Source of the DNA: Trueperaceae bacterium
Lineage (GTDB): Bacteria; Deinococcota; Deinococci; Deinococcales; Trueperaceae
NCBI GenBank assembly: GCA_035703635.1
Contig: DASSXV010000065.1
Location: 1-64,000, forward strand
Direction: 5' to 3'
DNA: 64,000 nt
Below the pieces are notes generated by a model. The model ran no database searches and had not been told where the DNA came from. It saw only the letters and a list, made by a program, of their open reading frames with translations. The position numbers and the translations under genes were made by a program. Numbering within the stretch: position 1 is the first letter of the stretch; every line of letters starts with the position of its first letter. Positions 996 to 52,941 of this stretch are shown here, one piece after another.

Positions 996-2255
996 TTGCG
1001 CTTCCGCTTCGCTCACCTAGCCGACCTCCACCTAGACACCCCGTTCCAAGGGCTGCGCGCCAACCGCCCAGACCTAGCCGCCACCTTGCGCGATGCGTCA
1101 CTGACCGCCTGGGATCATGCCGTGACCGCCTGCCTAGCCGCCGAAGTCGACTTCGTGGTCATCGCAGGTGACGTCTACGACGGTGCGGAAGCAGGCGTGA
1201 GGGCTCAGCTGCGCTTCCGCGACGGACTGGCGCGGCTCGCCGCCGCCGGAGTTCAGTCCTTCGTGGTGCACGGCAACCACGACCCGCTAGGGGGCCGTTG
1301 GTCGGCGATAAGCGACTGGCCGCCAGGTGTCACGGTGTTCGGTCACGACGACGTAGCGAGCGCGCCCGTTGTCAAGGACGGCCAACAACTCGCGCTCGTT
1401 CACGGCATCTCGTACGCAAGGCAGGAAGTCACTGAGAACCTCGCCCTGCGCTTCAAGCGCGACAGTAGCTTCGTCGGCTACCAAGTCGGCTTGCTGCACG
1501 CGAACGTCGACGGGCGCGGTGGGCACGCCAACTACGCGCCAGCCTCCCTCGCCGACTTGCGCGCTTCCGGCATGGACTATTGGGCGCTCGGCCACGTGCA
1601 CGTGCGCGCCGTGCTGAGCCACGAGCGCCCCCTCGCCATCTACCCGGGCAACCTGCAGGCGCGTCACGTCAACGAGACGGGCGAGAAAGGCTTCTACCTA
1701 GTCGACGTGGATGACGGGCGGGCGACGGCCAGCTTCGTCGAGGTTGGCCTCGTGCGCTTCGACGACATCCAGTTGGACATCGCGGGCCTCGCTAGCGTCG
1801 CCGAAGTTCACTCCGCCCTGACTGCCGCAGCGCTACTGCCGAGAGGCACGGCGCTGACGCAAGTCCTGCGCGCTAGCCTGCACGGTTCGGGGCCGACCCA
1901 CGCTGCTCTGCAGAAGGCTGGCGAAACCGGGCTCCTCGAGTACCTGGTCGACGTCGCCCCCGCCGGCGTGTGGTGGGACGAGGTCCGGCTGCGCACTAGG
2001 CCGGAACTCGACCGCGAGGCGCGGCTACGAGCTGGCGACTTCATCGCAGACCTCCTGACCCTGAGCGACGCGCGCCGGCCAGACGCCTCCGCGCACGTCG
2101 GTAGCCTCGTCGCCGAGTTGCAGTCGCACGCGCTACTCCGCAACGTCGCCGACCACTTGGGCCTCGAGGCGTTGATCGCCGAGGCTCAGGCGCTGTGGGA
2201 CGAGGCAGCCATCGCCGCCTTCGACCTGGTCGACGCAGAGTCGGCGGAGGGCTAG
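996..2255 (+). CDS. yhaO: Mre11/SbcD-like metallophosphoesterase DNA repair exonuclease (YhaO-like)
   Basis: HLADLHL, AGDVYD, GNHD, ALGHVH and YPGNLQAR motifs. Confidence 0.88.
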   Translation: MRFRFAHLADLHLDTPFQGLRANRPDLAATLRDASLTAWDHAVTACLAAEVDFVVIAGDVYDGAEAGVRAQLRFRDGLARLAAAGVQSFVVHGNHDPLGGRWSAISDWPPGVTVFGHDDVASAPVVKDGQQLALVHGISYARQEVTENLALRFKRDSSFVGYQVGLLHANVDGRGGHANYAPASLADLRASGMDYWALGHVHVRAVLSHERPLAIYPGNLQARHVNETGEKGFYLVDVDDGRATASFVEVGLVRFDDIQLDIAGLASVAEVHSALTAAALLPRGTALTQVLRASLHGSGPTHAALQKAGETGLLEYLVDVAPAGVWWDEVRLRTRPELDREARLRAGDFIADLLTLSDARRPDASAHVGSLVAELQSHALLRNVADHLGLEALIAEAQALWDEAAIAAFDLVDAESAEG

Positions 2256-2258
2256 AAC

Positions 2259-5180
2259 GTGCGCATAGACCGCGTGGCAGTCACGCGTTTCCGCGGGCTG
2301 CACGACCTCGAGCTCGAGTTCGGCGCCGGACTGATGGTCCTCGAAGGCCCGAACGAAGCAGGTAAGAGCACCCTCATGGCCTTCATTCAGGCGCTGCTCT
2401 TCCCGACCACGCTGACCGCGACCACGCGAGTGACTGGCAGCGTCGACATCAGCGTCTCCGGCAAGCGTTACCGCGTTTCTCGCAGCGGCGCGCGAGCCAC
2501 GCAGCGGCTGCGAGACCTGGACACGGGCGAGTCGCTAGCTTCAGCGCACCTCGCCGCGCTCACCGGCCAGCTTGACGCCAGCGTCTACCGCAACGTGTTC
2601 GCGTTCGGCCTTGGCGAGCTCCAGTCGTTCGAGGCCCTCACCGACGCGGCCGTGAAGGAGCGCCTCTACTCTGCGGCCGTCGCGGGGGCGGGGGCCAACG
2701 CCGGTCGCGCCTCTCGCGCGCTGGATGACGAACTGAACGGCCTTCTCAAGCCAAGGAGCCCGGCCACGACGCTTGGCCAACTAGCTGGAGAGCTGACGAG
2801 CGCGCTCAACGCAGCACACGCCGCCAGGCGTGAGGCGGCCAACTACGCTGCGGCGGTCCGCGAACGGGTCAGCGTGGCGGCGGAGGCGGAGCAGCGCGCG
2901 GTTGAGCGCGCGGCGGCGGCCGAACGCGTCGGGTGGTTCAGCGCCCTGCTTGACGCGTGGCCCAACTGGCAGGCGGGCGCAGCTGCCGGCGTCGACCTCG
3001 CCGCCTTGGAGGCTGAGATCGCGGACTACGCGGCTGGCACAGGCGCTGGCCCGGCTCCCGCGCTGTGGCTGGCGCATGCCGAGGGCGTCAAGGGGCTGGA
3101 GGCCAGGCTGGCCGCGTTCGAGCAGACCGCGGCCGAGGTAGAGACGCGTCAGGAGGAGCTAAGCCAGCATGTTGCCGACTTGCGCGCTGGCCTCTCAGCG
3201 TTAGGGCCGCGTTGGAACCCTAAGCGGTTAGCTGACTTCGTGGATGGCGCGGGGTGGCGTGCGCGGGCCGCCGCCGCGAGGACGGCGATCGAGGAGAAGA
3301 CCGCGGCACTAGCTCGCTTGGAGGGGGCGAAGGCCGAGGCTGAACTTCAGGTCGGCCTGGCCGCTGGACGTGAGGAGGCCGCCCGCGACGAGCGCGAGCG
3401 CCTCCTGCGTGAACCCTTGCTCGTACGGGCGTTCGCGCAGGTCGAACCGGAACCCGCCGACGATGACGCAGCCGTAGACGCCGCCTTGGCGCAACTAGCC
3501 GAGCGCACGCGAGAGCGGAAGGCCGGCATGGCCCGCGTGAGCGACCTCTTCACCGAGTTGGCCGAGGTGCGTGACGCGCGCGCGCAAGCCAACGAGCAGC
3601 TGCGGGTAAGCGCGATGCGGGCCGCAGGCTGGCAACGCTGGGTTGGTTGGGCGCTCGTCCTGTGCCTCGCGCTCGGCGCCGGCTGGCTAGGGTGGCGTTC
3701 GGACCGCGCGTATCTGGCGGCCGCGGCCGCCTCGGTGGTGGCAACGGTGCTCCTGTGGCCGCGCTGGCGACGGTCCCGGGTCGCCGCTGCCGCGCTGACG
3801 GAGCTCGAGGAGCGGGCGGCGGCGTTGCGCGCGGAGGAGACCGACTTGACCGCGGACTTGCAGTCGGCGTTGGCGGCGCTTGGGCTCAAGAGGGACGCGC
3901 GCTCGGCGGACGTGGCGGCGGCGAGCCGCGCAGCGCTGGAGCTAGACGCCGCGCTCGAGGCGGCAGCCCGCAGCGGAAGCGACCTTGACCGCGCTGCACG
4001 TGAAGCCAGGGACGCTCGCGCGGCCTTCGCCACTCACGCAGGCAACGCAGCCAAGCTCGGCGAGGAACGCACGGCGCTACTGAACGCCTGGGCAGAGTGG
4101 TGCCGCGCAGCCGGCGTGCCAGCCGACTTGCCGCCGGAGGAGCTGCCGGCTTTCCTAGCGGACATCGAGCGGCTGCAGGCCGTGCAGTCTGCCTTCAGGG
4201 ACGTTGACGCCAAGCTGCGGCCCGCCATGGCGCGAGCCGATGACTACCGCAAGCAAGTCGGCGCGTTGGCTATGGCGCTAGGCCTAGCCTCCGAACCCGA
4301 AGCCGCGGCCAGCACGGTTAGGGCCTGGGCGGCGCGCGCCAAGGAGGTGGAGGCGCGCTACCTGGAACTAGAGCAGAAGCGCCTGGCGTTGCAGGCAGTG
4401 GTTGTCACGGCACTGCGCGATGTCGCTGCCCGCTTCGGGGCCCGCGCCGACCAGGCGCGTGAGGCGTTAGCCGCGGGAGACCCGCAGGGCTGGCAGGCGA
4501 GCCTCACTCTCGAGCAGGAGCGCGAGCGCACCCTGGCCACGGCAGCGCGCAGGCTCAACGAGCAGACCGGAGCCCTCACGCAGAAGCTGGAGGAGGCAGA
4601 GGCCTCCGCCGACCTAGCCACTCAGTTGCAGACCGCTGAACGCGTCGCAGCGGAAGCGCGCGCCCAAGTGCGGCGCTGGGTGGTCGCGCGCCTCGCCAAG
4701 GGCCTGATCGACGACACGCTCGAAGAGTACGAGCGCACGAAAGTCCCAGAGGTGCTGCGCCGCGCCGGGCATCACTTCGGAACCATGACCGCGGGCCGTT
4801 ACGTGCGCGTTCACCTCCACGAGGGCCGCGAGCTGCGGGCGTTCACTCCGAACGACGAGGTGCTCGCAGCGGCGGACCTAAGCCGCGGCACGTTCGAACA
4901 GCTCTACCTCGCCGTGCGCCTCGGCCTCATCGAGTCGTTCTCCGCCGCCAACGTCGCCCTTCCGCTCGTGCTCGACGACGTCCTCGCCAACGCTGATCCC
5001 GAGCGCGCCGCGCGCCTCGCGGCGGTGCTCGCCGACCTCGCCGAGCGCCAGCAGGTCCTCTTCCTGACTTGCCAGCCGCACATAGCCTCCCTGCTAGTCG
5101 CCCAGGCACCGCGCGCCAAGCACGTCGTCTTGCCGCACCGTGTGGGAGCCGCACTGGCGTTTGACGACGGCTCTAGCTGA
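2259..5180 (+). CDS. yhaN: Rad50/SbcC-like ATPase with long coiled coil and two internal TM helices (YhaN-like)
   Basis: Walker A GPNEAGKST, C-terminal LSRGTFEQLYLAVRL signature, LVLDDVLANAD Walker B; follows the nuclease gene. Confidence 0.85.
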   Translation: MRIDRVAVTRFRGLHDLELEFGAGLMVLEGPNEAGKSTLMAFIQALLFPTTLTATTRVTGSVDISVSGKRYRVSRSGARATQRLRDLDTGESLASAHLAALTGQLDASVYRNVFAFGLGELQSFEALTDAAVKERLYSAAVAGAGANAGRASRALDDELNGLLKPRSPATTLGQLAGELTSALNAAHAARREAANYAAAVRERVSVAAEAEQRAVERAAAAERVGWFSALLDAWPNWQAGAAAGVDLAALEAEIADYAAGTGAGPAPALWLAHAEGVKGLEARLAAFEQTAAEVETRQEELSQHVADLRAGLSALGPRWNPKRLADFVDGAGWRARAAAARTAIEEKTAALARLEGAKAEAELQVGLAAGREEAARDERERLLREPLLVRAFAQVEPEPADDDAAVDAALAQLAERTRERKAGMARVSDLFTELAEVRDARAQANEQLRVSAMRAAGWQRWVGWALVLCLALGAGWLGWRSDRAYLAAAAASVVATVLLWPRWRRSRVAAAALTELEERAAALRAEETDLTADLQSALAALGLKRDARSADVAAASRAALELDAALEAAARSGSDLDRAAREARDARAAFATHAGNAAKLGEERTALLNAWAEWCRAAGVPADLPPEELPAFLADIERLQAVQSAFRDVDAKLRPAMARADDYRKQVGALAMALGLASEPEAAASTVRAWAARAKEVEARYLELEQKRLALQAVVVTALRDVAARFGARADQAREALAAGDPQGWQASLTLEQERERTLATAARRLNEQTGALTQKLEEAEASADLATQLQTAERVAAEARAQVRRWVVARLAKGLIDDTLEEYERTKVPEVLRRAGHHFGTMTAGRYVRVHLHEGRELRAFTPNDEVLAAADLSRGTFEQLYLAVRLGLIESFSAANVALPLVLDDVLANADPERAARLAAVLADLAERQQVLFLTCQPHIASLLVAQAPRAKHVVLPHRVGAALAFDDGSS

Positions 5181-42619: not shown

Positions 42620-43237
42620 GTGACCGCGGCCGCGCTCGCCGGCTTCGGCCTCAGCCTCTCGATAATCGTGGCGCTAGGAGCGCAGAACGCCTTCGTGCTC
42701 CGCCAAGGCCTACGCCGCGAGCACGTCGGAATCGTTGTGGCCATCTGCACGGTGTCCGACGCCCTCCTCATCGCCGCGGGCGTCGCGGGCCTCGGGTACG
42801 TCCTCGAGGTCGTGCCATGGTTGACAAGCGCAACGCGGTGGTTAGGCGCCGCCTTCCTGATCGCTTACGGACTCCTCGCAGCCTGGCGCGCGTTGTGGGG
42901 CAAGGGTGAGGGACTAACGCCAGCCGTTGGCGGCGCTGCTGGCACCGCCGCGCTCCGTCCTGTGATCCTGCTGACACTAGCCATGACGTGGCTCAACCCG
43001 TCGGTCTACCTCGACACGGCCTTCATCATCGGCTCCGTGGCCGCAACGCACGGGGCAGCCAATTGGGCGTTCGCCGTCGGCGCCATGGCGGGAAGCGCGA
43101 TGTGGTTCACGGCGCTAGGCTTCGGCGCGCGCTACCTGGCGCGGTGGTTACGCACACCGCGCTCTTGGCGTTACCTAGACGGCGTCATCGCACTGCTGCT
43201 CTTCTACACAGCGGCGCGGTTAGTGGTTGGGCACTAG
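42620..43237 (+). CDS. LysE/ArgO family amino acid exporter
   Basis: GAQNAFVLRQG, TWLNP.VYLDT. Confidence 0.9.
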   Translation: MTAAALAGFGLSLSIIVALGAQNAFVLRQGLRREHVGIVVAICTVSDALLIAAGVAGLGYVLEVVPWLTSATRWLGAAFLIAYGLLAAWRALWGKGEGLTPAVGGAAGTAALRPVILLTLAMTWLNPSVYLDTAFIIGSVAATHGAANWAFAVGAMAGSAMWFTALGFGARYLARWLRTPRSWRYLDGVIALLLFYTAARLVVGH

Positions 43238-43391
43238 GCCTCGCCTCAACCTGAGTGCATCTCGCGCCGCCTACACGTTCGACGTCTACCTCACGACGAG
43301 CGGTCTGGCGCCCCCCGGGCCGGTCGGCAGTAAGAACCTCGTGTAGGCGCAATGGATAAGCTGGCGTATACAGAGATCCGGGGGAACCTAC

Positions 43392-45449
43392 GTGAAGTAC
43401 AACGTCGTCTTCTACGACACCTTCGGGGGCAGCCTCAAGGAGCTGACCCTCGCCGAGCAAGGCGCCGTCATGAGCACCATGGTGGAGCTGACCGAGTCGC
43501 CCGACAGTCCCGGGCTCAACGTACACCGCATCGGTGACGCCTCCACGAAATGCTGGTCCGCCCGCGTGAACGACGACATCCGGCTCGTCTTCTTCCGCAC
43601 CGAGGCGATCGTGGTGCCGGCCTACGTGGGCCACCACGATGCGGCCTACCGCTGGGCGGAGGGACGCGCCCTGGACGTGCACCCAGGTACGGGCGCCGCT
43701 CAGATCGTCATAATTGGTGAACGCCGCGAAGAGATCATCAAGCGCATCGTCGTTCCCAAACTCGACGACCCGTTCGCCAAGCGCCCGTTCGAGCACCTGA
43801 CCGACGAAACCCTGCTCGCGTACGGCACCCCGAAAGCGTGGCTGCAGCCCATCAGGGAGGCAACCACTCAGGCGTTCCTCGACGAGATCGGCGACTTACT
43901 GCCCGCCGAGGCGTGTGAGTTCCTGATGGCGGTCGCGGCTGGCGAAACGCCGCCACCGCCACCAGCTCCGAAGCTCAGCCTCAACCCCTTCACGCACCCC
44001 GACGCGAAGCGGCGCTTCTACCTGGTGGAGTCCGACGAGGACCTAAGACGCGCCCTGACGCTCGACTGGGAGCAGTGGATGCTTTACCTCCACCCAAGCC
44101 AGCGAGAAGCGGTCGACAGAGAGTTCGCGGGACCCGCCCGCGTTACCGGCGGGCCCGGCACCGGGAAGTCGGTAGTGGCCGTCCACCGCGCCGCACGCCT
44201 GGCGCGACACGGCAACGGGCGCGTGCTGCTCACCAGCTTCTCGAAGACGCTAAGCAACCACCTGCGCCAACAGCTCGACCAGTTGCTGGCAGGCGACCCG
44301 GCCAGGGAACGCGTGGACGTGGTGCACTTGCACCAGCTCGCCGTCGACCGCCTCAGCGAGGCGCGTGGCGAGAGCCTCAAGGTGGCCGACGGCCCGGCGG
44401 TCGGCAAGGCGGCGAAGGGAGCCGCAGAGGCGCTCGGCGCTGCCACCGTAACCCCGGCCTTCCTGGAGGCCGAGTGGAACATGGTGGTAGACCCCTACGG
44501 GGTGACGACCTGGGAAGAGTACGCCGCGGTGGACCGCGCCGCCCGCGGCACGCCCCTGAACCGGGCCCAACGCGAACTAGCCTGGCGCGGCATCGAGGCT
44601 ATGCGGACGCCGTTGGAGGCCGCCGGGCTCACCACCTGGTCGAGGGTGTGCTGGGAACTGGTCGGGCGGCTGGAAGCGGGCGACGAGCGCCCGTACGCCC
44701 ACGTGATCGCCGACGAGGCGCAGGACTTCGGCCCCGCCGAGCTGCGCCTGCTGCGCGCCCTAGCCGCTAGCGGCACGAACGACGTGTTCCTCGCGTCCGA
44801 CGCCAACCAGCGCATCTTCAAGCCCTACACGCCCGTGGCGCGCGCGGGGCTCGAGGTGCGCGGTCGCTCAGTAACGCTGCGCGTCAATTACCGCATGACG
44901 GAGCAGATCCGCCGCGTGGCCGAGAGCATCATCGCCGGCAAAGTCGAATGCGACGAGCCGACGGCTGGGTCAATATCGCTCTTGGCTGGCCTTGAGCCGG
45001 AGGTCATCGTGGCGCCCGGCGTAACCGTGGAGATCCAGAGGGTGGCCGACTGGCTCAAGAAGCTGGTAGCCAACGGCTACCGCCCGGGCCAGATCGCCAT
45101 CTTCGCGAGGAAGAAGGACATCATCCAGAACCGGATCCATGCGGCTGTGAAAGCGGCAGGCCTAGAGGTGTTCGGTCTCGACTCGGACGACACGCCGCCG
45201 CCCAACCGCGTCGCCATCGGCACGATGCACCGCAGCAAAGGGCTGCAGTTCCGCGCCATCGCCATCATGGGGGTCGAGGACGGAACAGTGCCGCTCAACT
45301 CGGTGCGAACGCGGCAACCCGACGAGGCCGCGCAAAGGGCGTTCATGGAGATGGAGAGGAACTTGCTCTACGTGGCCTGTTCGCGGGCGCGGGAGCGGTT
45401 GTTGATCACGGGAGTTAAGCGGGGGTCGGAGTTTGTGTCGGCTAGCTAG
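43392..45449 (+). CDS. UvrD/SF1 helicase with N-terminal RelE/ParE-like domain
   Basis: GGPGTGKS, IADEAQD, DANQRI, NYR, TMHRSKGLQF, LYVACSRARE; N-terminal SARVNDDIRL..YVGHHDAAY. Confidence 0.85.
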   Translation: MKYNVVFYDTFGGSLKELTLAEQGAVMSTMVELTESPDSPGLNVHRIGDASTKCWSARVNDDIRLVFFRTEAIVVPAYVGHHDAAYRWAEGRALDVHPGTGAAQIVIIGERREEIIKRIVVPKLDDPFAKRPFEHLTDETLLAYGTPKAWLQPIREATTQAFLDEIGDLLPAEACEFLMAVAAGETPPPPPAPKLSLNPFTHPDAKRRFYLVESDEDLRRALTLDWEQWMLYLHPSQREAVDREFAGPARVTGGPGTGKSVVAVHRAARLARHGNGRVLLTSFSKTLSNHLRQQLDQLLAGDPARERVDVVHLHQLAVDRLSEARGESLKVADGPAVGKAAKGAAEALGAATVTPAFLEAEWNMVVDPYGVTTWEEYAAVDRAARGTPLNRAQRELAWRGIEAMRTPLEAAGLTTWSRVCWELVGRLEAGDERPYAHVIADEAQDFGPAELRLLRALAASGTNDVFLASDANQRIFKPYTPVARAGLEVRGRSVTLRVNYRMTEQIRRVAESIIAGKVECDEPTAGSISLLAGLEPEVIVAPGVTVEIQRVADWLKKLVANGYRPGQIAIFARKKDIIQNRIHAAVKAAGLEVFGLDSDDTPPPNRVAIGTMHRSKGLQFRAIAIMGVEDGTVPLNSVRTRQPDEAAQRAFMEMERNLLYVACSRARERLLITGVKRGSEFVSAS

Positions 45450-45506
45450 CGCTGTTCGAAAATGAGGTGACCCTCCTAACTTTCACGGCGTGGACGCGCT
45501 CCGACA

Positions 45507-46058
45507 CTAGGCGGTAACCAGGGCTGGCGGGGTCATTGCCCCTTCGATACGGCGCCTTATGTCCAGCACATCGTAGGTGCCGCTCACTCGAACCCGGACA
45601 AGCGGCACGCCAGCCGCGGCTAGCGCTCCGTTCTTCAACGCGTCAGCTCGGCGTGCTCTATCGCTAGCGTGGCTGGAATCGTCCAACTCCACCGCGCACA
45701 TAATGCGCGTCGAGTCAGGATCGACCAACACGAAGTCCAGGTGACGCGAGCTAATGCTGTTCCTAGCAGCCTGTCTTTCACTCTCCGACAGTCCGCGTCG
45801 GACCACAACCACGTCCTCCAGGCGCACCTTCCCGAACACCGCCATGTCTGGGGCAGCCTCGCGCAAGATGTGGAGGAAGCGCGTCTCGGTCTCCGTGAAG
45901 AGGCTAGGGCGCCGCTCGTACGGGAACCCGACCTTGCGCCGTTTGGTGGATCCTCCCAGGCGACCCTTAAGGACTGCCAAGCCGACAAGGCCAAGCAGCG
46001 CAACGATGAGCAGTGGCCCCATCTGTCGGAACGCGTTACTGAAAGCTTCCTCTAGCAT
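45507..46058 (-). CDS. DUF2726 domain protein with N-terminal TM helix
   Basis: LFTETE.RF, KVRLEDV, HLDFVL, AVELDDSSH, KN..L..AGVPLVR; SD ggggagg. Confidence 0.85.
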   Translation of the reverse strand: MLEEAFSNAFRQMGPLLIVALLGLVGLAVLKGRLGGSTKRRKVGFPYERRPSLFTETETRFLHILREAAPDMAVFGKVRLEDVVVVRRGLSESERQAARNSISSRHLDFVLVDPDSTRIMCAVELDDSSHASDRARRADALKNGALAAAGVPLVRVRVSGTYDVLDIRRRIEGAMTPPALVTA

Positions 46059-46280
46059 TGACCTCCCCAAACCAACACCTTGGACACTACGCCGAGGTAG
46101 TACGTGACATCGATACGCACGAGTAATCACTCTCTGAGCCCAACAGTGCTTCGTAGAGGCTACCGCATATTCCGCCGCACTTCGACCGTGATTGAGGGGC
46201 GCCGCCTTGCTACGAGACCCAGGCGGAAGTGAAGGGGTCCTATTGCTGCGCCCAGAACTCCTACGTCATCCGATAGCTCG

Positions 46281-46868
46281 TTAGCCACTGGGGAACGTGG
46301 TCTCAATAGTGCTCGCAATACGGCGCCTCGCCCTCTCGACATGTTCCGCCTGATCTTTCGACTCGACCGCCCCTGGCTGTAGACGACGAACGATTGCGAT
46401 GGCATCCTCGGCCGAGCGCCCGAAAGTCATGAGGACTATTGACACAATCGTGCCCGTCCGCCCGCGCCCGCCGCGGCAATGAACCACGACGGTCTCCCCC
46501 TCCACGAGGGCCGAGCAGACTTCGTTGACCAGACGATCGACATCATCCGCCTGAGAATCAGTCGGTATATCCCATAGACGATGGGAAAGTGGTGCACGCG
46601 GATGCCTCGCTGTTCCGCCGCTACGGAAAATCCCGGGATCCCAGGCATCACGTCTTCGAACGGCTCCGCAAGCGACCCGAGCGCTTGGACGCCATATACG
46701 TCCCTCAAGCGGGAAAAGTCGGCGTCGAGGCTCCATTCTCACCGCGCCCCCGTGACTAGACCGCCTTCTTGCTTGCCTCGGGCGGGCGTGTGGCCCAGAC
46801 CGCCGGATTCACCTTCGGCGGAGGGGCCCACCCAGCTTGTTCTTGATGATCTTCTGATCTGTCGTCAT
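46281..46868 (-). pseudogene. Pseudogene of a CDKN3/PTP-like phosphatase (paralogue of 48611-49216)
   Basis: Collinear with the intact copy; TGA at 46741-46739 replaces Trp of GARW; frameshift near 46575; keeps HCRGGRGRTG. Confidence 0.85.
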
Positions 46869-47651: not shown

Positions 47652-48614
47652 CTACCGCGCCAGTTCGGCCAGCCCAAGGGCCAGACGCTCGATCTCGTCA
47701 CGCATGGCCAGCTTCTCGATCCACCGGCGCGGAATTCCACTAGCCCCGTAGTAGGCACCAGCGATCTGCCCGTACACCGCTCCGGTGGTGTCGGCGTCAT
47801 CGCCGAGGTTCACGGCCAGCAGGGCGCCCTCTTCGAACGAGTCGCTCTTCGCGAACGCCCACAGCGCCGCTTCCAAAGACTCCACCACGTAACCGCTGCC
47901 CCTGATCTCGGGCGGCTCCTTGCGCAGGAACGAGCCGGCGGCCACCTGCGCGACCTCCTTGCAGAGCGGCTCGGCGTTCCACGAGCCGGGGATCGGCGTG
48001 TAGTCGGGCGCCAGCAGCTCCTCCTTGCTGGCACCGTGGATGGCGCCCACGAGCAGGCCAGCCAGGTAGCGGCAGGCGTCCACGCAGGTGAGCGCGCCGT
48101 GCGTCGTGCGCGAGCTCTCGCCCGCGAGGCGGATGGCTTCGGTTGGGTCGTGTGCGAGCGCCATGGGCACGGGGGCCAAGCGCATGATGCTGCCGTTGCC
48201 AGCCGAGTTCGGATCCGTCGAACCGGCGAAGGGCTGGCCGCTATGCTCGAAGCGCTCTAGCGCCGTGCGCGTCGCGTTGCCGATGTCGAAGTAGTACCCC
48301 TTGACGCTGAAATGCCCCTCGCGGTACCAGCGCACGTAGCGTTGCATCTGATCACGCGGGTCGAAGGCGTGCTTCTCGACCAGGCTCTCCGCCAGGCAGA
48401 GCGCCATGCTCGTGTCGTCTGTCCATTCGCCTGGCTTCAGACTGAACGGCCCACCACCCACCATGTCGGTTAGGGGCTCGAAGTGGCCCGGATGTTGGAA
48501 CTCGAGCGTGGTTCCAAGGGCATCGCCTGCCGCTAGGCCGAGCAAAGCGCCGCGGCTTCGGTCGAGAGTGCTTGCAGCAGCGGCATCACCACCAACCGCG
48601 CCAGGAACGGTCAT
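47652..48614 (-). CDS. ADP-ribosylglycohydrolase (DraG/ARH family)
   Basis: [33 protein letters not shown]. Confidence 0.95.
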
Positions 48615-49216
48615 CGTGCGCCTCCGACGCGAGACACCGCGCTAGAAGCCAGGCGCCGGCTCGCCTCCCGAACGTACTGCTGCTGCTGTAAGTTCTCGAC
48701 CGCACGCGGCTGCGCGTCGCGAACGATTCGGATGGCGTCCTGCGGCTCATGCCCGAACGCGGTCAGGATAATCGAGGCGATCGTCCCCGTCCGCCCCTGG
48801 CCACCGCGGCAATGCACCACGACGCGTTCACCCGCACTCAGGGCTTGGCGGATTACACCCACGAGCTCGTCAACCGCGTTGGCCTGCTCGGCAGTAGGTA
48901 CGGACGTGTCGACAATCGGGAGGTGGTGGACGCGGATGCCGCGCTTCCTGGCTTCTGCGAACAGCGTCGGAATCCCAAGCATGTCGTACTCGAACTCCTC
49001 CATCAGCGACACGAGGACGTCGGTGCCGTGATGGTCCTTCAACCGGTCGAGGTCGGCGTAGAGGCTGCGCTCCCACCGGGCGCCGGTAACCATCCCTTCC
49101 CCACGCTTGCCGGGTGCGAAGGTAAGCCCCAGCTTGCCCTGGTTCGCGTGGGCCCCCGCCTCGACCCAGAACACCTCTATCGGGTGACTCTCGGAAGTTC
49201 GAACTTCGGTCGACAT
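48611..49216 (-). CDS. CDKN3-like protein-tyrosine/dual-specificity phosphatase fold protein
   Basis: [38 protein letters not shown]. Confidence 0.88.
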
Positions 49217-49888: not shown

Positions 49889-50368
49889 TTACTCCACCAC
49901 ATCCGTCTGCTCAGCAAACCACGCACGCCAGTCCCACGAGCTCTTCATAACCTCCGCGAGCTGGAACGTCTCAGTACTCAGGATCCCCGTGACCGCCTGC
50001 GGCATGGTGGTCGACACGAACTTCAGTAGCGCCTGAACGGTGGGGTGCAACGTCTGGATGATGATGTCTGCCGAGCCGAACGAGAGGCCAACGAAGCGGA
50101 CGTTGGGGAACTCGGTGAGTTGTTGCGCCACGGTCTCGGAGTGGCCGGGCTGGACCTTGATGAGGGTGACGGCCACCACGTCGAAACCCAGGCGGAGGGG
50201 GTTGCCCACGGCGGTGATGCGGATGAAGCCCAGCTCGATGAGCTTCCCGACGCGGCCGCGGACAGTGGCTTCCGAGACGCCGAGGTCGCGGGCGATGTCG
50301 CGGTAGGCGCGACGGCCGTCGTCCTCGAGGGCGACTATGAGTGCTTGGTCCAAGGCATCAATGCGCAT
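49889..50368 (-). CDS. Lrp/AsnC family transcriptional regulator
   Basis: LEDDGRRAYRDIARDLGVSEATVRGR; start uncertain (50368 or 50392). Confidence 0.9.
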   Translation of the reverse strand: MRIDALDQALIVALEDDGRRAYRDIARDLGVSEATVRGRVGKLIELGFIRITAVGNPLRLGFDVVAVTLIKVQPGHSETVAQQLTEFPNVRFVGLSFGSADIIIQTLHPTVQALLKFVSTTMPQAVTGILSTETFQLAEVMKSSWDWRAWFAEQTDVVE

Positions 50369-50473
50369 CGTCTTACAGGATACATTGCGCATCGCATAAG
50401 TCTCAAGCCACTGCGCGTTGACATCGCGCAATGGCGCCGCATATGCTCGACCTTGCAAACCTAGGAGGAAACG

Positions 50474-51970
50474 ATGAAGCGTCTTTTCACCACGCTGCTA
50501 GTGCTGATGCTCGGATTCGGCATGGCGCAGACAACGATTCGCATCGGCCTCGCCGAGGACCCGGACATTCTCGACCCGGACCTTGCGCGCACCTACGTTG
50601 GCCGCATCGTCTTCACGAGCGTGTGCAACAAGCTCTTCGACATCACCCCTAACCTCGAGATCGTTGGCCAGCTCGCCACCAGCTATCAGGTCTCGGCCGA
50701 CGGCCTAGCTCTCGACCTCGAACTGCGTGACGGCGTGACGTTCCACGACGGCACGGTCTTCGACGCTGAGGCCGTGAAGTACAACATCAACCGCTCGCTC
50801 ACCCTGCCCGGCTCCACGCGCGCCAGCGAGATCTCGCAGGTCTCTTCTGTCGAAGTGACCGGCCCACTTAGCGTGCGCATCAACCTCACGCAGCCGTTCT
50901 CGCCCCTCATCGCGCAGTTCGCTGACCGCGCTGGCATGATGATCTCCCCAACCGCCGCCGAGGCGGCTGGTGAGCAGTTCGGCGCCAACCCCGTCTGCTC
51001 CGGGCCGTACAAGTTTGTCGAGCGCGTTGCTCAGGACCGCATCGTCCTCGAGAAGTTCGACGCTTACTGGAACGCGGACGCGTACTCCTTCGACCGCGTG
51101 ATCTTCCTGCCGATCCCGGACACGAGCGTGCGCCTCGCCAACCTGCAGTCCGGCGACCTCGACCTCATCGAGCGTCCGTCCCCCACCGACCTTGGCACCA
51201 TGGCCGCCGACTCGAGCATCGCAGTGGCTAGCGTCCCGAGCTTGGGCTACCAGGGCATCACCGTCAACATCGCCAACCCCGTCCAGCACGACACGCCGCT
51301 CGCTTCCGACCAGCGCGTGCGTGAAGCCTTCGAGCTTTCGCTCGATCGCGACGTCATCAACAACGTCGTGTTCGACGGCCAGTTCATGGTCGGCAACCAA
51401 GCCGTTCCGCCCACCAGCCCCTGGTACACCGCCTCCTACCCCATCTCGCAGCGCGACGTTGAGAAGGCCAAGGCCCTCCTCGCCGAGGCAGGCTACTCAG
51501 GCGCCGTGCCCGTCGAGCTGATGGTGTCGAACAGCCCAGACAGCATTCGCGTTGGTGAGGTCATCCAAGCCATGGCCGCCGAGGCGGGCTTCAACGTCAC
51601 GGTGCGCGCCACCGAGTTCGCTACCGCCCTCGACTTGCAGGATGCCGGCCAGTACGACGCGTTCCAAGTCGGTTGGTCAGGCCGCCTCGACCCGGACGGC
51701 AACATCCACTCCTTCGAGACCTGCACCGGCGCCCTCAACCAGTCCGGTTACTGCGATCCAGAAGTCGATAAGCTCCTCAACGACGCGCGCGCAGCGAGCT
51801 CCACCGCCGAGCGCAAGGCCCTCTACGACGAGGCCGCCCTGCGTTACCTGCCGAACCGCAACATCATCTACCTCTATCACACCCAGCTGTTCTTCCCGCA
51901 CACCACGGCCCTCAAGGGCTTCGTGGCGTTCCCGGACGGCATGATCCGCCTGCAAGGCGTTTCGTTCTGA
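50474..51970 (+). CDS. Peptide/nickel ABC transporter substrate-binding protein (family 5)
   Basis: Signal peptide; LRDGVTFHDGT.FDAEAVK; GPYKF. Confidence 0.92.
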   Translation: MKRLFTTLLVLMLGFGMAQTTIRIGLAEDPDILDPDLARTYVGRIVFTSVCNKLFDITPNLEIVGQLATSYQVSADGLALDLELRDGVTFHDGTVFDAEAVKYNINRSLTLPGSTRASEISQVSSVEVTGPLSVRINLTQPFSPLIAQFADRAGMMISPTAAEAAGEQFGANPVCSGPYKFVERVAQDRIVLEKFDAYWNADAYSFDRVIFLPIPDTSVRLANLQSGDLDLIERPSPTDLGTMAADSSIAVASVPSLGYQGITVNIANPVQHDTPLASDQRVREAFELSLDRDVINNVVFDGQFMVGNQAVPPTSPWYTASYPISQRDVEKAKALLAEAGYSGAVPVELMVSNSPDSIRVGEVIQAMAAEAGFNVTVRATEFATALDLQDAGQYDAFQVGWSGRLDPDGNIHSFETCTGALNQSGYCDPEVDKLLNDARAASSTAERKALYDEAALRYLPNRNIIYLYHTQLFFPHTTALKGFVAFPDGMIRLQGVSF

Positions 51971-51996
51971 ACGCAAGGGGCTAGGGGAGCCATCGG

Positions 51997-52941
51997 GTGC
52001 TGAACTACATCCTCCGGCGCGTGATGACCGCCATCCCCACGCTCCTCATCGTCACCGTGATGGTGTTCGCCGTGCAGCGAATGCTGCCCGGCGACCCAGC
52101 ACTGGTGCTAGCCGGTGAGGAGCGCGACCCTCAGGTCATCGAGTTCATCCGCGACCGCTACCGCCTCAACGACCCCGTGCCTGTGCAGTACGTAGCCTGG
52201 CTCGGGCAAGTCGTACAGGGCAACCTAGGGCAGTCGTTCCGCACCCGACAACCCGTAACGCAATTGATCCTCCAGAAGCTCCCCGTCACGGTGGAGCTCT
52301 CGCTCCTGGCCATGCTGTTCGCGTTGGCCATCGCCATACCAACGGGCGTCATCGCGGCGGTGCGCAAAGGCACCGCCGCCGATTACGTCAGCACCGTCGC
52401 CGCGCTTTCTGGCCTGTCGCTGCCGAACTTCTGGATGGGCATCATGCTCATCTTAGTCGTGTCCGTGCAGTGGAAACTGCTGCCAGCTTCAGGCTTCGTG
52501 CCGCTCAACGAGGGGGTTTGGCCCAACCTGCAACGCATGATCATGCCCGCCTTCGTGCTCGGTACCGGCCTAGCCGCGGTGCTCATGCGGCAGATGCGCT
52601 CGTCCATGCTCGAGGTGTTGAAGCAGGACTACGTGCGCACGGCCCAAGCCAAGGGCCTCGCGCGCTTCCTGGTGGTTACGAGGCATGCGTTGCGCAACGC
52701 CCTCATCCCCGTGATCACCATCCTCGGCCTGCAGTTGGGCGGCCTGCTCTCCGGCGCCGTCCTCACCGAGCAGGTGTTCACCATCCCCGGCTTCGGGAAG
52801 CTGGTGATCGACGCCGTGTTCAACCGCGATTACGCCGTGGTGCAGGGCATCGTGCTCTTCACGGCCACCGCCTACATCGTCATCAACCTCCTCGTCGACG
52901 TGGCTTACGCCCTCGCTAACCCCAAGATCCAGATGCGCTGA
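51997..52941 (+). CDS. Peptide ABC transporter permease (DppB-like)
   Basis: PGDPA, DYVRTAQAKGL, HALRNA, RDY. Confidence 0.92.
   Translation: MLNYILRRVMTAIPTLLIVTVMVFAVQRMLPGDPALVLAGEERDPQVIEFIRDRYRLNDPVPVQYVAWLGQVVQGNLGQSFRTRQPVTQLILQKLPVTVELSLLAMLFALAIAIPTGVIAAVRKGTAADYVSTVAALSGLSLPNFWMGIMLILVVSVQWKLLPASGFVPLNEGVWPNLQRMIMPAFVLGTGLAAVLMRQMRSSMLEVLKQDYVRTAQAKGLARFLVVTRHALRNALIPVITILGLQLGGLLSGAVLTEQVFTIPGFGKLVIDAVFNRDYAVVQGIVLFTATAYIVINLLVDVAYALANPKIQMR

Follow-up and report, generated by a model that had tools for sequence, protein, structure and literature searches.

A solo ArmD-like fusion of a RelE-fold domain and a UvrD-type helicase at the edge of a variable defence-type island in a Trueperaceae bacterium

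The fusion of a RelE-like domain with a UvrD-type helicase is an architecture already known from ArmD, the product of the fourth gene of ARMADA type II (PMC12458937; this preprint and the other papers below are cited from the portions of their text that were accessible). The ArmD proteins of Escherichia coli strains NCTC 12900, EDL933 and ATCC 8739 are about 700 amino acids (aa) long and combine an N-terminal RelE-like domain with a GajB-like UvrD helicase; the ArmD substitution K266A abolished protection and D454N reduced it (PMC12458937). Here, we analysed a 64,000-nucleotide stretch of DNA from a Trueperaceae bacterium (GenBank assembly GCA_035703635.1, contig DASSXV010000065.1, positions 1 to 64,000; hereafter the window), in which a gene of the same architecture occupies positions 43392..45449 of the forward strand. 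It starts with GTG and encodes 685 aa, exactly as delimited in an earlier note on this DNA, which read the product as a RelE/ParE-type domain followed by an intact superfamily 1 (SF1) helicase and described such fusions as not well characterised; the latter remark no longer stands, because the fusion is that of ArmD in ARMADA type II. On the basis of current results, the window gene is best explained as a solo, ArmD-like helicase that serves defence and probably carries an active ribonuclease (RNase) domain, a reading to which we give a probability of about 0.6.

The N-terminal domain (aa 1-88; 43392..43655, + strand) is clearly predicted to have the RelE/YoeB/YafQ fold. At the sequence level its match is weak: PF05015 (HigB-like) was found over aa 38-82 at E 0.021 with 15.7 bits versus a cut-off of 27, and the domain searched alone reached E 0.0015, still below the Pfam cut-off. 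Of the 44 N-domains of the family, 14 matched PF05015 at E<=0.01, the best at 1.5e-6, and ParE_like was matched by 3. The fold was assigned from an AlphaFold model of aa 1-230, which was built on 43 sequences and has a predicted local distance difference test score (pLDDT) of 84; its secondary structure runs beta-alpha-alpha-beta-beta-beta, with a helix at residues 82-89 and then an extra hairpin. When this model was compared with the PDB by Foldseek, 24 matches reached E<=1e-3; YafQ, YoeB and RelE headed the list, with template modelling scores of 0.65-0.81 relative to the toxin. By VIA-align, the best match was YafQ (4ml0_B; Z 9.6, root-mean-square deviation (rmsd) 2.1 A over 86 of 90 residues, model range 2-87) and 34 chains had Z>=8; the 50 listed entries were RelE/ParE-superfamily toxins, Cami1 and one insecticidal-toxin domain. 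Thus, the RelE/ParE-type reading of the N-domain in the earlier note was upheld by the structural check.

The positions that carry catalysis in related toxins are kept. In YoeB, the general base is Glu46 and the general acid His83, with the transition state stabilised by Arg59 and Arg65; in YafQ the general-base role is taken by His50 (PMC3814384). A hidden Markov model (HMM) profile of the 44 N-domains was aligned with E. coli YoeB (2a6q_E, residues 21-83, E 0.21; a second YoeB gave E 0.038). It places four predicted catalytic residues, all on the + strand, at YoeB positions: H45 (43524-43526) on E46, R58 (43563-43565) on R59, R64 (43581-43583) on R65 and H82 (43635-43637) on H83, and S56 falls on S57. 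Among the 44 N-domains, column 45 is E in 25 and H in 19, column 58 is R in 43, and columns 64 and 82 are R and H, respectively, in all 44; D at column 83 (43 of 44), Y at column 86 (41) and W at column 88 (all 44) are also conserved. This pattern, read from sequence, agrees with an RNase-type member of this superfamily rather than with a gyrase poison of the ParE type, and it strengthens the predicted RNase function put forward in the earlier note.

The C-terminal part of the protein is a UvrD/GajB-type SF1A helicase core (aa 231-685; 44082..45446, + strand), as indicated by Pfam, PADLOC, PDB and Foldseek matches and by invariant columns. Its Walker A motif (G253-S260, GPGTGKS with K259; 44148-44171, +) and Walker B motif (D441-D445, DEAQD with D441; 44712-44726, +) are invariant in 43 homologues, in agreement with the intact helicase of the earlier note. 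The UvrD helicase families of Pfam cover about aa 232-675 (UvrD-helicase 2.6e-14, aa 234-323; AAA_19 3.7e-9; UvrD_C 8.5e-18, aa 605-674). PADLOC GajB models matched down to E 4.8e-26, and the best PADLOC match was a NERD+UvrD model over the helicase only (aa 434-682). Matches to the NCBIfam models of PcrA, UvrD, Rep, HelD and HelR were all far below their cut-offs. The nearest solved sequences are UvrD and PcrA (PDB search, UvrD 1e-16), and the full-length AlphaFold model (pLDDT 84, predicted template modelling score 0.75), in which the helicase core is confident, found UvrD, PcrA and Rep as top matches (Foldseek E 2e-21). Between the two domains lie a conserved beta-hairpin (aa 92-107; 43665..43712, +) with nearly invariant T100, G101 and Q104, which is outside the range aligned to stand-alone toxins, a poorly conserved linker with pLDDT below 50 (aa 110-128; 43719..43775, +), and a helical region that precedes the helicase Q motif (aa 133-230; 43788..44081, +). 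The helical region carries the motifs GVP..W, LP.EA.E, DPF.HPDA.RRF and W..W..LHP.Q and has no family assignment; aa 125-232 had no Pfam match, and a feature search of this middle region returned unnamed clusters at 0.78-0.83, which is within the chance range.

The relationship to ArmD was then evident from homologues. Among 8000 scored candidates, 1690 homologues were found at E<=1e-3, the best 120 being mostly about 680-700 aa, and six bear names of the Joint Genome Institute such as 'RelE of RelBE' or 'YafQ'. The window protein aligns over its full length, at 32.9% identity, with an ArmD-type protein of Escherichia sp. (locus L065; query 5-674, E 7.7e-97), the DNA of which is 99.4% identical to a gene in 534 of 5426 E. 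coli genomes, named 'UvrD-helicase domain-containing protein' (704 aa) by the PGAP annotation pipeline. This E. coli gene is preceded, in order, by genes for proteins of 952 aa (helicase), 1638 aa (methyltransferase) and 2113 aa (helicase), which is the ArmA-B-C-D layout of PMC12458937. By every test of membership, the window gene is an ArmD-like family member outside an ARMADA system: the gene directly upstream encodes LysE and not the YprA-like giant helicase ArmC, and BrxHII-like ArmA and PglX-like ArmB were not among the window genes scanned with Pfam, a genome-wide search for PglX-type methylases not having been made.

We also surveyed the gene neighbourhoods of relatives. The survey drew on the best 80 loci out of 368 relatives in contigs representing one genome per species, to which 16 regions from related genomes were added. 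A helicase open reading frame (ORF) was present in 90 loci, of which 68 were usable, having either a recognised partner or 3 kb or more of upstream sequence; the other 22, with too little flank, were left out. A Type III methyltransferase gene (Mod) stands upstream on the same strand in 26 of the 68 (PADLOC MTase_III, 1340 bits; an N6_N4 methylase of ~950 aa), and in 15 of these 26 a Res-like gene (ResIII plus endonuclease domain) is also present. The earlier note had described such fusions as usually lying beside restriction-modification (R-M) loci, and these counts bear it out. The giant YprA/DruE-like helicase ArmC is directly upstream in 18 of the 68 loci, AddAB-like genes are beside the fusion in 7 (5 of them co-directional with the helicase), and the remaining 17 have other neighbours or none (GmrSD, SNF2, a DNA2-like helicase-nuclease, tubulin-like plus BrxL, TIR). 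In other bacteria, DNA-targeting defence operons end with the ArmD-like gene (ARMADA type II, Type III R-M-like operons, AddAB-like helicase-nuclease pairs). A FastTree phylogeny of 86 rows (Shimodaira-Hasegawa-like supports; midpoint root for drawing only) separated an ARMADA branch of 24 rows, 15 with ArmC, from a larger branch of 62 rows that includes the window protein. Within the larger branch, 41 rows (24 with Mod) form a Type III R-M subclade, and 11 rows from the taxonomic family and genus of the window form another, the contexts of which are mixed. The window protein groups with those of genomes G010 and G022 (support 100). These data suggest that fusions of the ArmD type are not confined to ARMADA; most of the sampled family is located behind Type III R-M genes, beside AddAB-like pairs or alone. 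We found no description of these wider contexts (Type III R-M, AddAB-like, Type I R-M, none) in literature listings that were noisy ('RelE' matches 'release'), and Supplementary Table S2 of PMC12458937 may bear on them. The family branch that has these contexts is also that of the window protein, a solo variant.

Several other forms and contexts were observed in the survey. A search for stand-alone N-domains gave 4769 profile matches at E<=1e-3, of which the best 150 were listed; eight proteins among these were read, and seven short ones look like truncated or frameshifted copies. The eighth, P0251 (2017 aa), is a further fusion form of the ArmD-like family, with a C-terminal extension of ~1300 aa that includes a second SF1 (Dna2/Upf1-like) ATPase motif set. 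In L035 and L104, which come from Meiothermus and a related genome, an operon of VWA, tubulin-like (Tubulin_2), 680-aa protein and BrxL-like Lon ATPase genes ends with the ArmD-like gene, a context that had no match to a named defence system. In L037 and L069 (Poribacteria), it overlaps the end of a gene for a ThsB-type TIR-domain protein (201 aa), and the co-directional cluster includes a 923-aa WD40 protein. An AddAB-like pair lies directly downstream of the ArmD-like gene in L103 (G013:C12; 43 bp gap) and L102 (G008:C162); in both genomes it is the only such pair and is 36-44% identical to the single pair of G000 (the window genome), G010 and G003 of the same genus, which suggests replacement by a transferred helicase-AddB-AddA cassette.

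The solo state of the window gene was examined in its genome, a draft of 88 contigs that is 97.65% complete, in which the fusion gene is single-copy. No ArmC-size YprA helicase was found in this genome, where the only frame of the kind is a 778-aa MrfA-type one on contig C36. PF01555 methylases were likewise absent from it (the control was positive in 10 of 14 genomes), and queries with the Type III Mod and Res of locus L011 had no match there. A single AddAB-like pair is present, on contig C64 (G000:C64:23857-29921). Antitoxin and R-M genes do not adjoin the fusion gene, as the earlier note had stated, and neither does a partner helicase gene. The 154-bp gap that separates it from the upstream LysE gene has no ORF of at least 40 aa except one that overlaps the gene start in another frame; the neighbours scanned with Pfam and 25 further window genes scanned in the same way (metabolic, transport or without match) included no partner.

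In this lineage, the gene sits where a fixed left flank meets a variable island of defence type. A left flank of S51 peptidase and LysE genes is common to the window, G010 (85.5% identity) and metagenome loci L112 (95%) and L113 (94%). The right flank is an insertion sequence (IS) transposase and a C5 methylase in L112, and small ORFs with ADP-ribosylglycohydrolase (ARH) fragments in L113; the right side of L114 (86%) is a Type I R-M operon (HsdM-RhuM-HsdS-HsdR), and that of L118 (89%) a GHKL ATPase with an SNF2 helicase. Across the genus, the locus is shared by G010 only, and the complete genome G003 has the flanking genes dispersed, so that no empty site can be defined. All three parts of the protein are under purifying selection: dN/dS versus G010 was 0.12 (aa 1-108), 0.16 (aa 109-230) and 0.12 (aa 231-685) at dS 0.63, and versus G022 it was 0.19-0.30. 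The GC content at third codon positions (GC3) of the gene is 0.87, as in host genes. Of 61 related genomes, 17 have the N-domain (within the genus, 4 of 17), and 17 of 18 matches in related genomes are inside frames of 540-762 aa, that is, helicase-fused. Pieces of the gene at >=95% identity were also found in contigs from four RNA libraries of two studies, which is compatible with transcription; DNA carry-over into such libraries is possible.

On the basis of these data, we propose that the ATP-driven motor probably engages DNA ends or single-stranded DNA of invading or damaged DNA, like the related UvrD/GajB motors. With slightly less confidence, the N-domain may be considered an active endoribonuclease, given its conserved catalytic positions. 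The protein would probably serve in defence against phage or foreign DNA, either alone or together with a DNA-targeting system of the variable island or elsewhere in the genome. Because no antitoxin gene is present, the remainder of the chain might hold the RNase in check in cis, in a manner coupled to what the motor meets, a step that we regard as tentative and somewhat improbable; the hairpin (aa 92-107) and the helical region start right after the catalytic His and are thus candidates for such restraint. A precedent for a fused RelE domain as effector is Cami1, a CARF-RelE protein on the ribosome that is among the fold matches. A further-reaching version is a single-chain immune module in which motor, hairpin and helical linker hold a YoeB-type RNase shut, motor loading on phage DNA ends or replication intermediates frees it to cut RNA, and the family acts as a portable RNA-cutting alarm on at least four DNA-targeting systems (ARMADA, Type III R-M, AddAB-like, Type I R-M); we consider this version doubtful.

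It should be noted that several points weigh against a solo defence helicase with an active RNase. The mapping of the catalytic residues consists of HMM alignments at E 0.04-0.2 together with the shared fold; the models are AlphaFold predictions, and cis-inhibition is a conjecture. The genome is a draft of 88 contigs, and a partner might therefore lie on an unassembled piece. The survey relied on a crude calling of ORFs and, for the recognition of partners, on BLAST to a few references typed with Pfam and PADLOC. In ARMADA type II, removing any single gene of the four abolished protection against HK022, and defence is described as direct and non-abortive (PMC12458937); in enterohaemorrhagic E. 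coli, armD deletion was the mildest of the four (10.1101/2025.09.22.677730). The accessible text of PMC12458937 reports no mutant of the RelE-like domain, so that RNase activity is unproven even for ArmD.

Among other explanations, a trans-acting accessory subunit survives best, although we consider it rather unlikely. Its partner would be elsewhere or in the variable island (for example, the AddAB-like pair on C64, which is the only one in the window genome, or an R-M system), and the RelE-fold domain would mainly bind nucleic acid or the partner. ArmD is one of the four genes required in ARMADA (PMC12458937). Same-strand relatives adjoin AddAB-like pairs in L049, L098, L101, L102 and L103, as does L060, and the only such pair of G013 and G008 is 43 bp downstream of their copy. 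On the other hand, binding alone would hardly explain why precisely the catalytic positions of YoeB are strictly conserved, and the window clade retained the gene despite changing right-flank neighbours.

Less probable still is an autonomous one-protein abortive-infection module, as in the sensor-effector of the earlier note, in which the helicase would be both sensor and built-in antitoxin, and phage nucleic acid would free a RelE-type RNase for cleavage of ribosome-bound mRNA, leading to arrest or death. The purifying selection on both domains of a solo gene, the kept catalytic positions, the absence of antitoxin and partner genes among the window genes scanned and in the genome queries, and the precedent of a sensor-RelE protein on ribosomes (Cami1, PDB 8phj) would all be consistent with it. 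However, 51 of 68 relatives are operonic with Mod, ArmC or AddAB-like genes, and entry into the A site may be hindered by the C-terminal tether, which starts just behind the catalytic His. The only tested system, ARMADA type II, needs four genes and is non-abortive, which argues against abortive infection as the general mode of the family (PMC12458937).

A housekeeping helicase in repair or coupled to transcription (UvrD/HelD-like), with an N-domain that merely resembles RelE, is very improbable. UvrD, PcrA and HelD are indeed the nearest solved helicases, and there are weak NCBIfam matches to HelR and HelD, but every NCBIfam equivalog score is far below its cut-off, the gene is patchy in related genomes as noted above and its relatives are located in defence operons. 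This patchiness and the location at the edge of a variable island likewise give no support to ribosome-linked quality control, the other role offered in the earlier note. The least probable explanation of all is a functionless relic of a lost defence operon, for which the missing partner genes and the gene flux and fragments on the right flank (the truncated phosphatase copy of the window, the ARH fragments in L113) could be cited. Against it, the frame is intact with all invariant family residues, dN/dS is 0.12-0.16 at dS 0.63, GC3 is that of host genes and the same locus is retained in at least four genomes or contigs.

With regard to the immediate surroundings, the sequence itself shows a Shine-Dalgarno-like GGGGGA (43380..43385, +), which lies 6 nt before the GTG start, and the G010 orthologue also starts with GTG at the identical residue. 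A promoter and terminator scan of 43100-45700 found none, and no tRNA genes that could serve as island markers occur within the window. The upstream neighbours are the LysE exporter and S51 peptidase genes (Pfam), and the downstream genes are convergent to the fusion gene, encoding a DUF2726 protein, two protein tyrosine phosphatases (PTP), a 75-aa ORF and an ARH (Pfam). The DUF2726 protein (Pfam 3e-32), which carries an N-terminal hydrophobic stretch, and a 153-aa fragment-like PTP copy lie at 45507-46742 (- strand). GC3 is 0.68 for the DUF2726 gene and 0.58 for the truncated PTP copy, and a GC dip of 0.59-0.635 at 45-47 kb spans this region, which looks like recently acquired or decaying DNA. 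The convergent DUF2726 gene (45507-46130) was considered as a partner and rejected as a chance neighbour, as it has no homologue in related loci L001-L110 and a lower GC3.

Some further features of the window were recorded. A PTP gene followed by an ARH gene forms an operon at 47652-49216 (- strand; Pfam PTP-SAK/Tc-R-P), 2.2 kb downstream of the helicase; against the NCBIfam Tri1 model the ARH scored 4.8e-102, which is below the model cut-off. Homologues of the two (PTP 54% and ARH 71% identity) are divergent from, and 128 bp away from, a 49%-identical helicase paralogue in G013 and G008, and the linkage (L102, L103, L106) is recurrent within one genus. Positions 50315-52000 are 98% identical to G010:C158:1-1686 (the end of an AsnC-type regulator gene and an SBP_bac_5 gene), compared with 83-89% in the helicase region, and may reflect recent recombination between the window species and the G010 species. 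Finally, a 419-aa gene followed by a gene for a 973-aa AAA_27 protein (996-5180, +), of which the larger alone was scanned, may be an exonuclease pair like SbcCD or YhaO-YhaN.

A naturally solo copy that is under selection offers the simplest case for asking what role the RNase-fold domain has and whether it is controlled by the helicase. ArmD is needed for ARMADA type II, yet no test of the RelE-like domain is reported in the accessible portions of the two preprints (PMC12458937, 10.1101/2025.09.22.677730). The wider distribution suggested by the survey would make the ArmD-type fusion a general accessory of DNA-targeting defence.

Compared with known systems, the window protein has several partial counterparts. 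A helicase whose N-terminus carries a RelE-like domain adjoins the GHKL-ATPase defence protein with methyltransferase of Tiamat type I-K (10.64898/2026.09.30.754977), and it is likened to the window protein by description, not by sequence comparison; no GHKL gene is among the window genes scanned, and a Tiamat/GHKL partner for the Type III-type operons was rejected, as the HATPase_c_3 matches in the five genomes checked fall outside the operons. GajB of Gabija has a UvrD-type SF1 core like that of the window protein and lacks the RelE-fold domain; its partner GajA, an OLD-family ATPase-TOPRIM nuclease, was not among the window genes scanned, the whole genome not having been searched for it. 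The predicted fold of the window N-domain matches that of the ribosome-dependent mRNA interferases YoeB, YafQ, RelE and HigB along the entire toxin (Z 8.5-9.6, rmsd 1.9-2.6 A, 78-86 residues), and the N-domain, like YoeB, has at matching positions a putative general base (E or H), two Arg and a general-acid His. Unlike type II toxins, which are small and free-standing at ~90 aa, it is followed after the catalytic His by two extra beta-strands and a 600-aa helicase, and no small adjoining antitoxin gene was found at the window locus; among relatives, 7 of 67 have a small ORF (<130 aa) that runs in the same direction and lies no more than 50 bp upstream. Cami1 of type III CRISPR (PDB 8phj/8phb; fold match Z 7.3-7.7) similarly joins a RelE-fold RNase to a sensor as an immune effector; its sensor is a CARF domain that binds cyclic tetra-adenylate (cA4), its RelE domain is C-terminal, and the two proteins are unrelated outside the RelE domain. 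PrrC and HEPN RNases on R-M systems offer an analogy only, in that an RNase-type domain is likewise linked to DNA-targeting restriction genes. Such RNases have been proposed as a second line of defence once restriction is neutralised (PMC3710099); they differ in RNase fold and have no helicase, whereas ArmD is needed for primary defence in ARMADA (PMC12458937). With ArmD itself, the window protein has the N-domain motif (H/K)HD.AY.WA in common, and its K259 and D441 are the counterparts, by motif only, of the K266 and D454 that were substituted in ArmD; unlike ArmD in ARMADA, it is encoded without ArmA, ArmB and ArmC alongside, as a solo gene.

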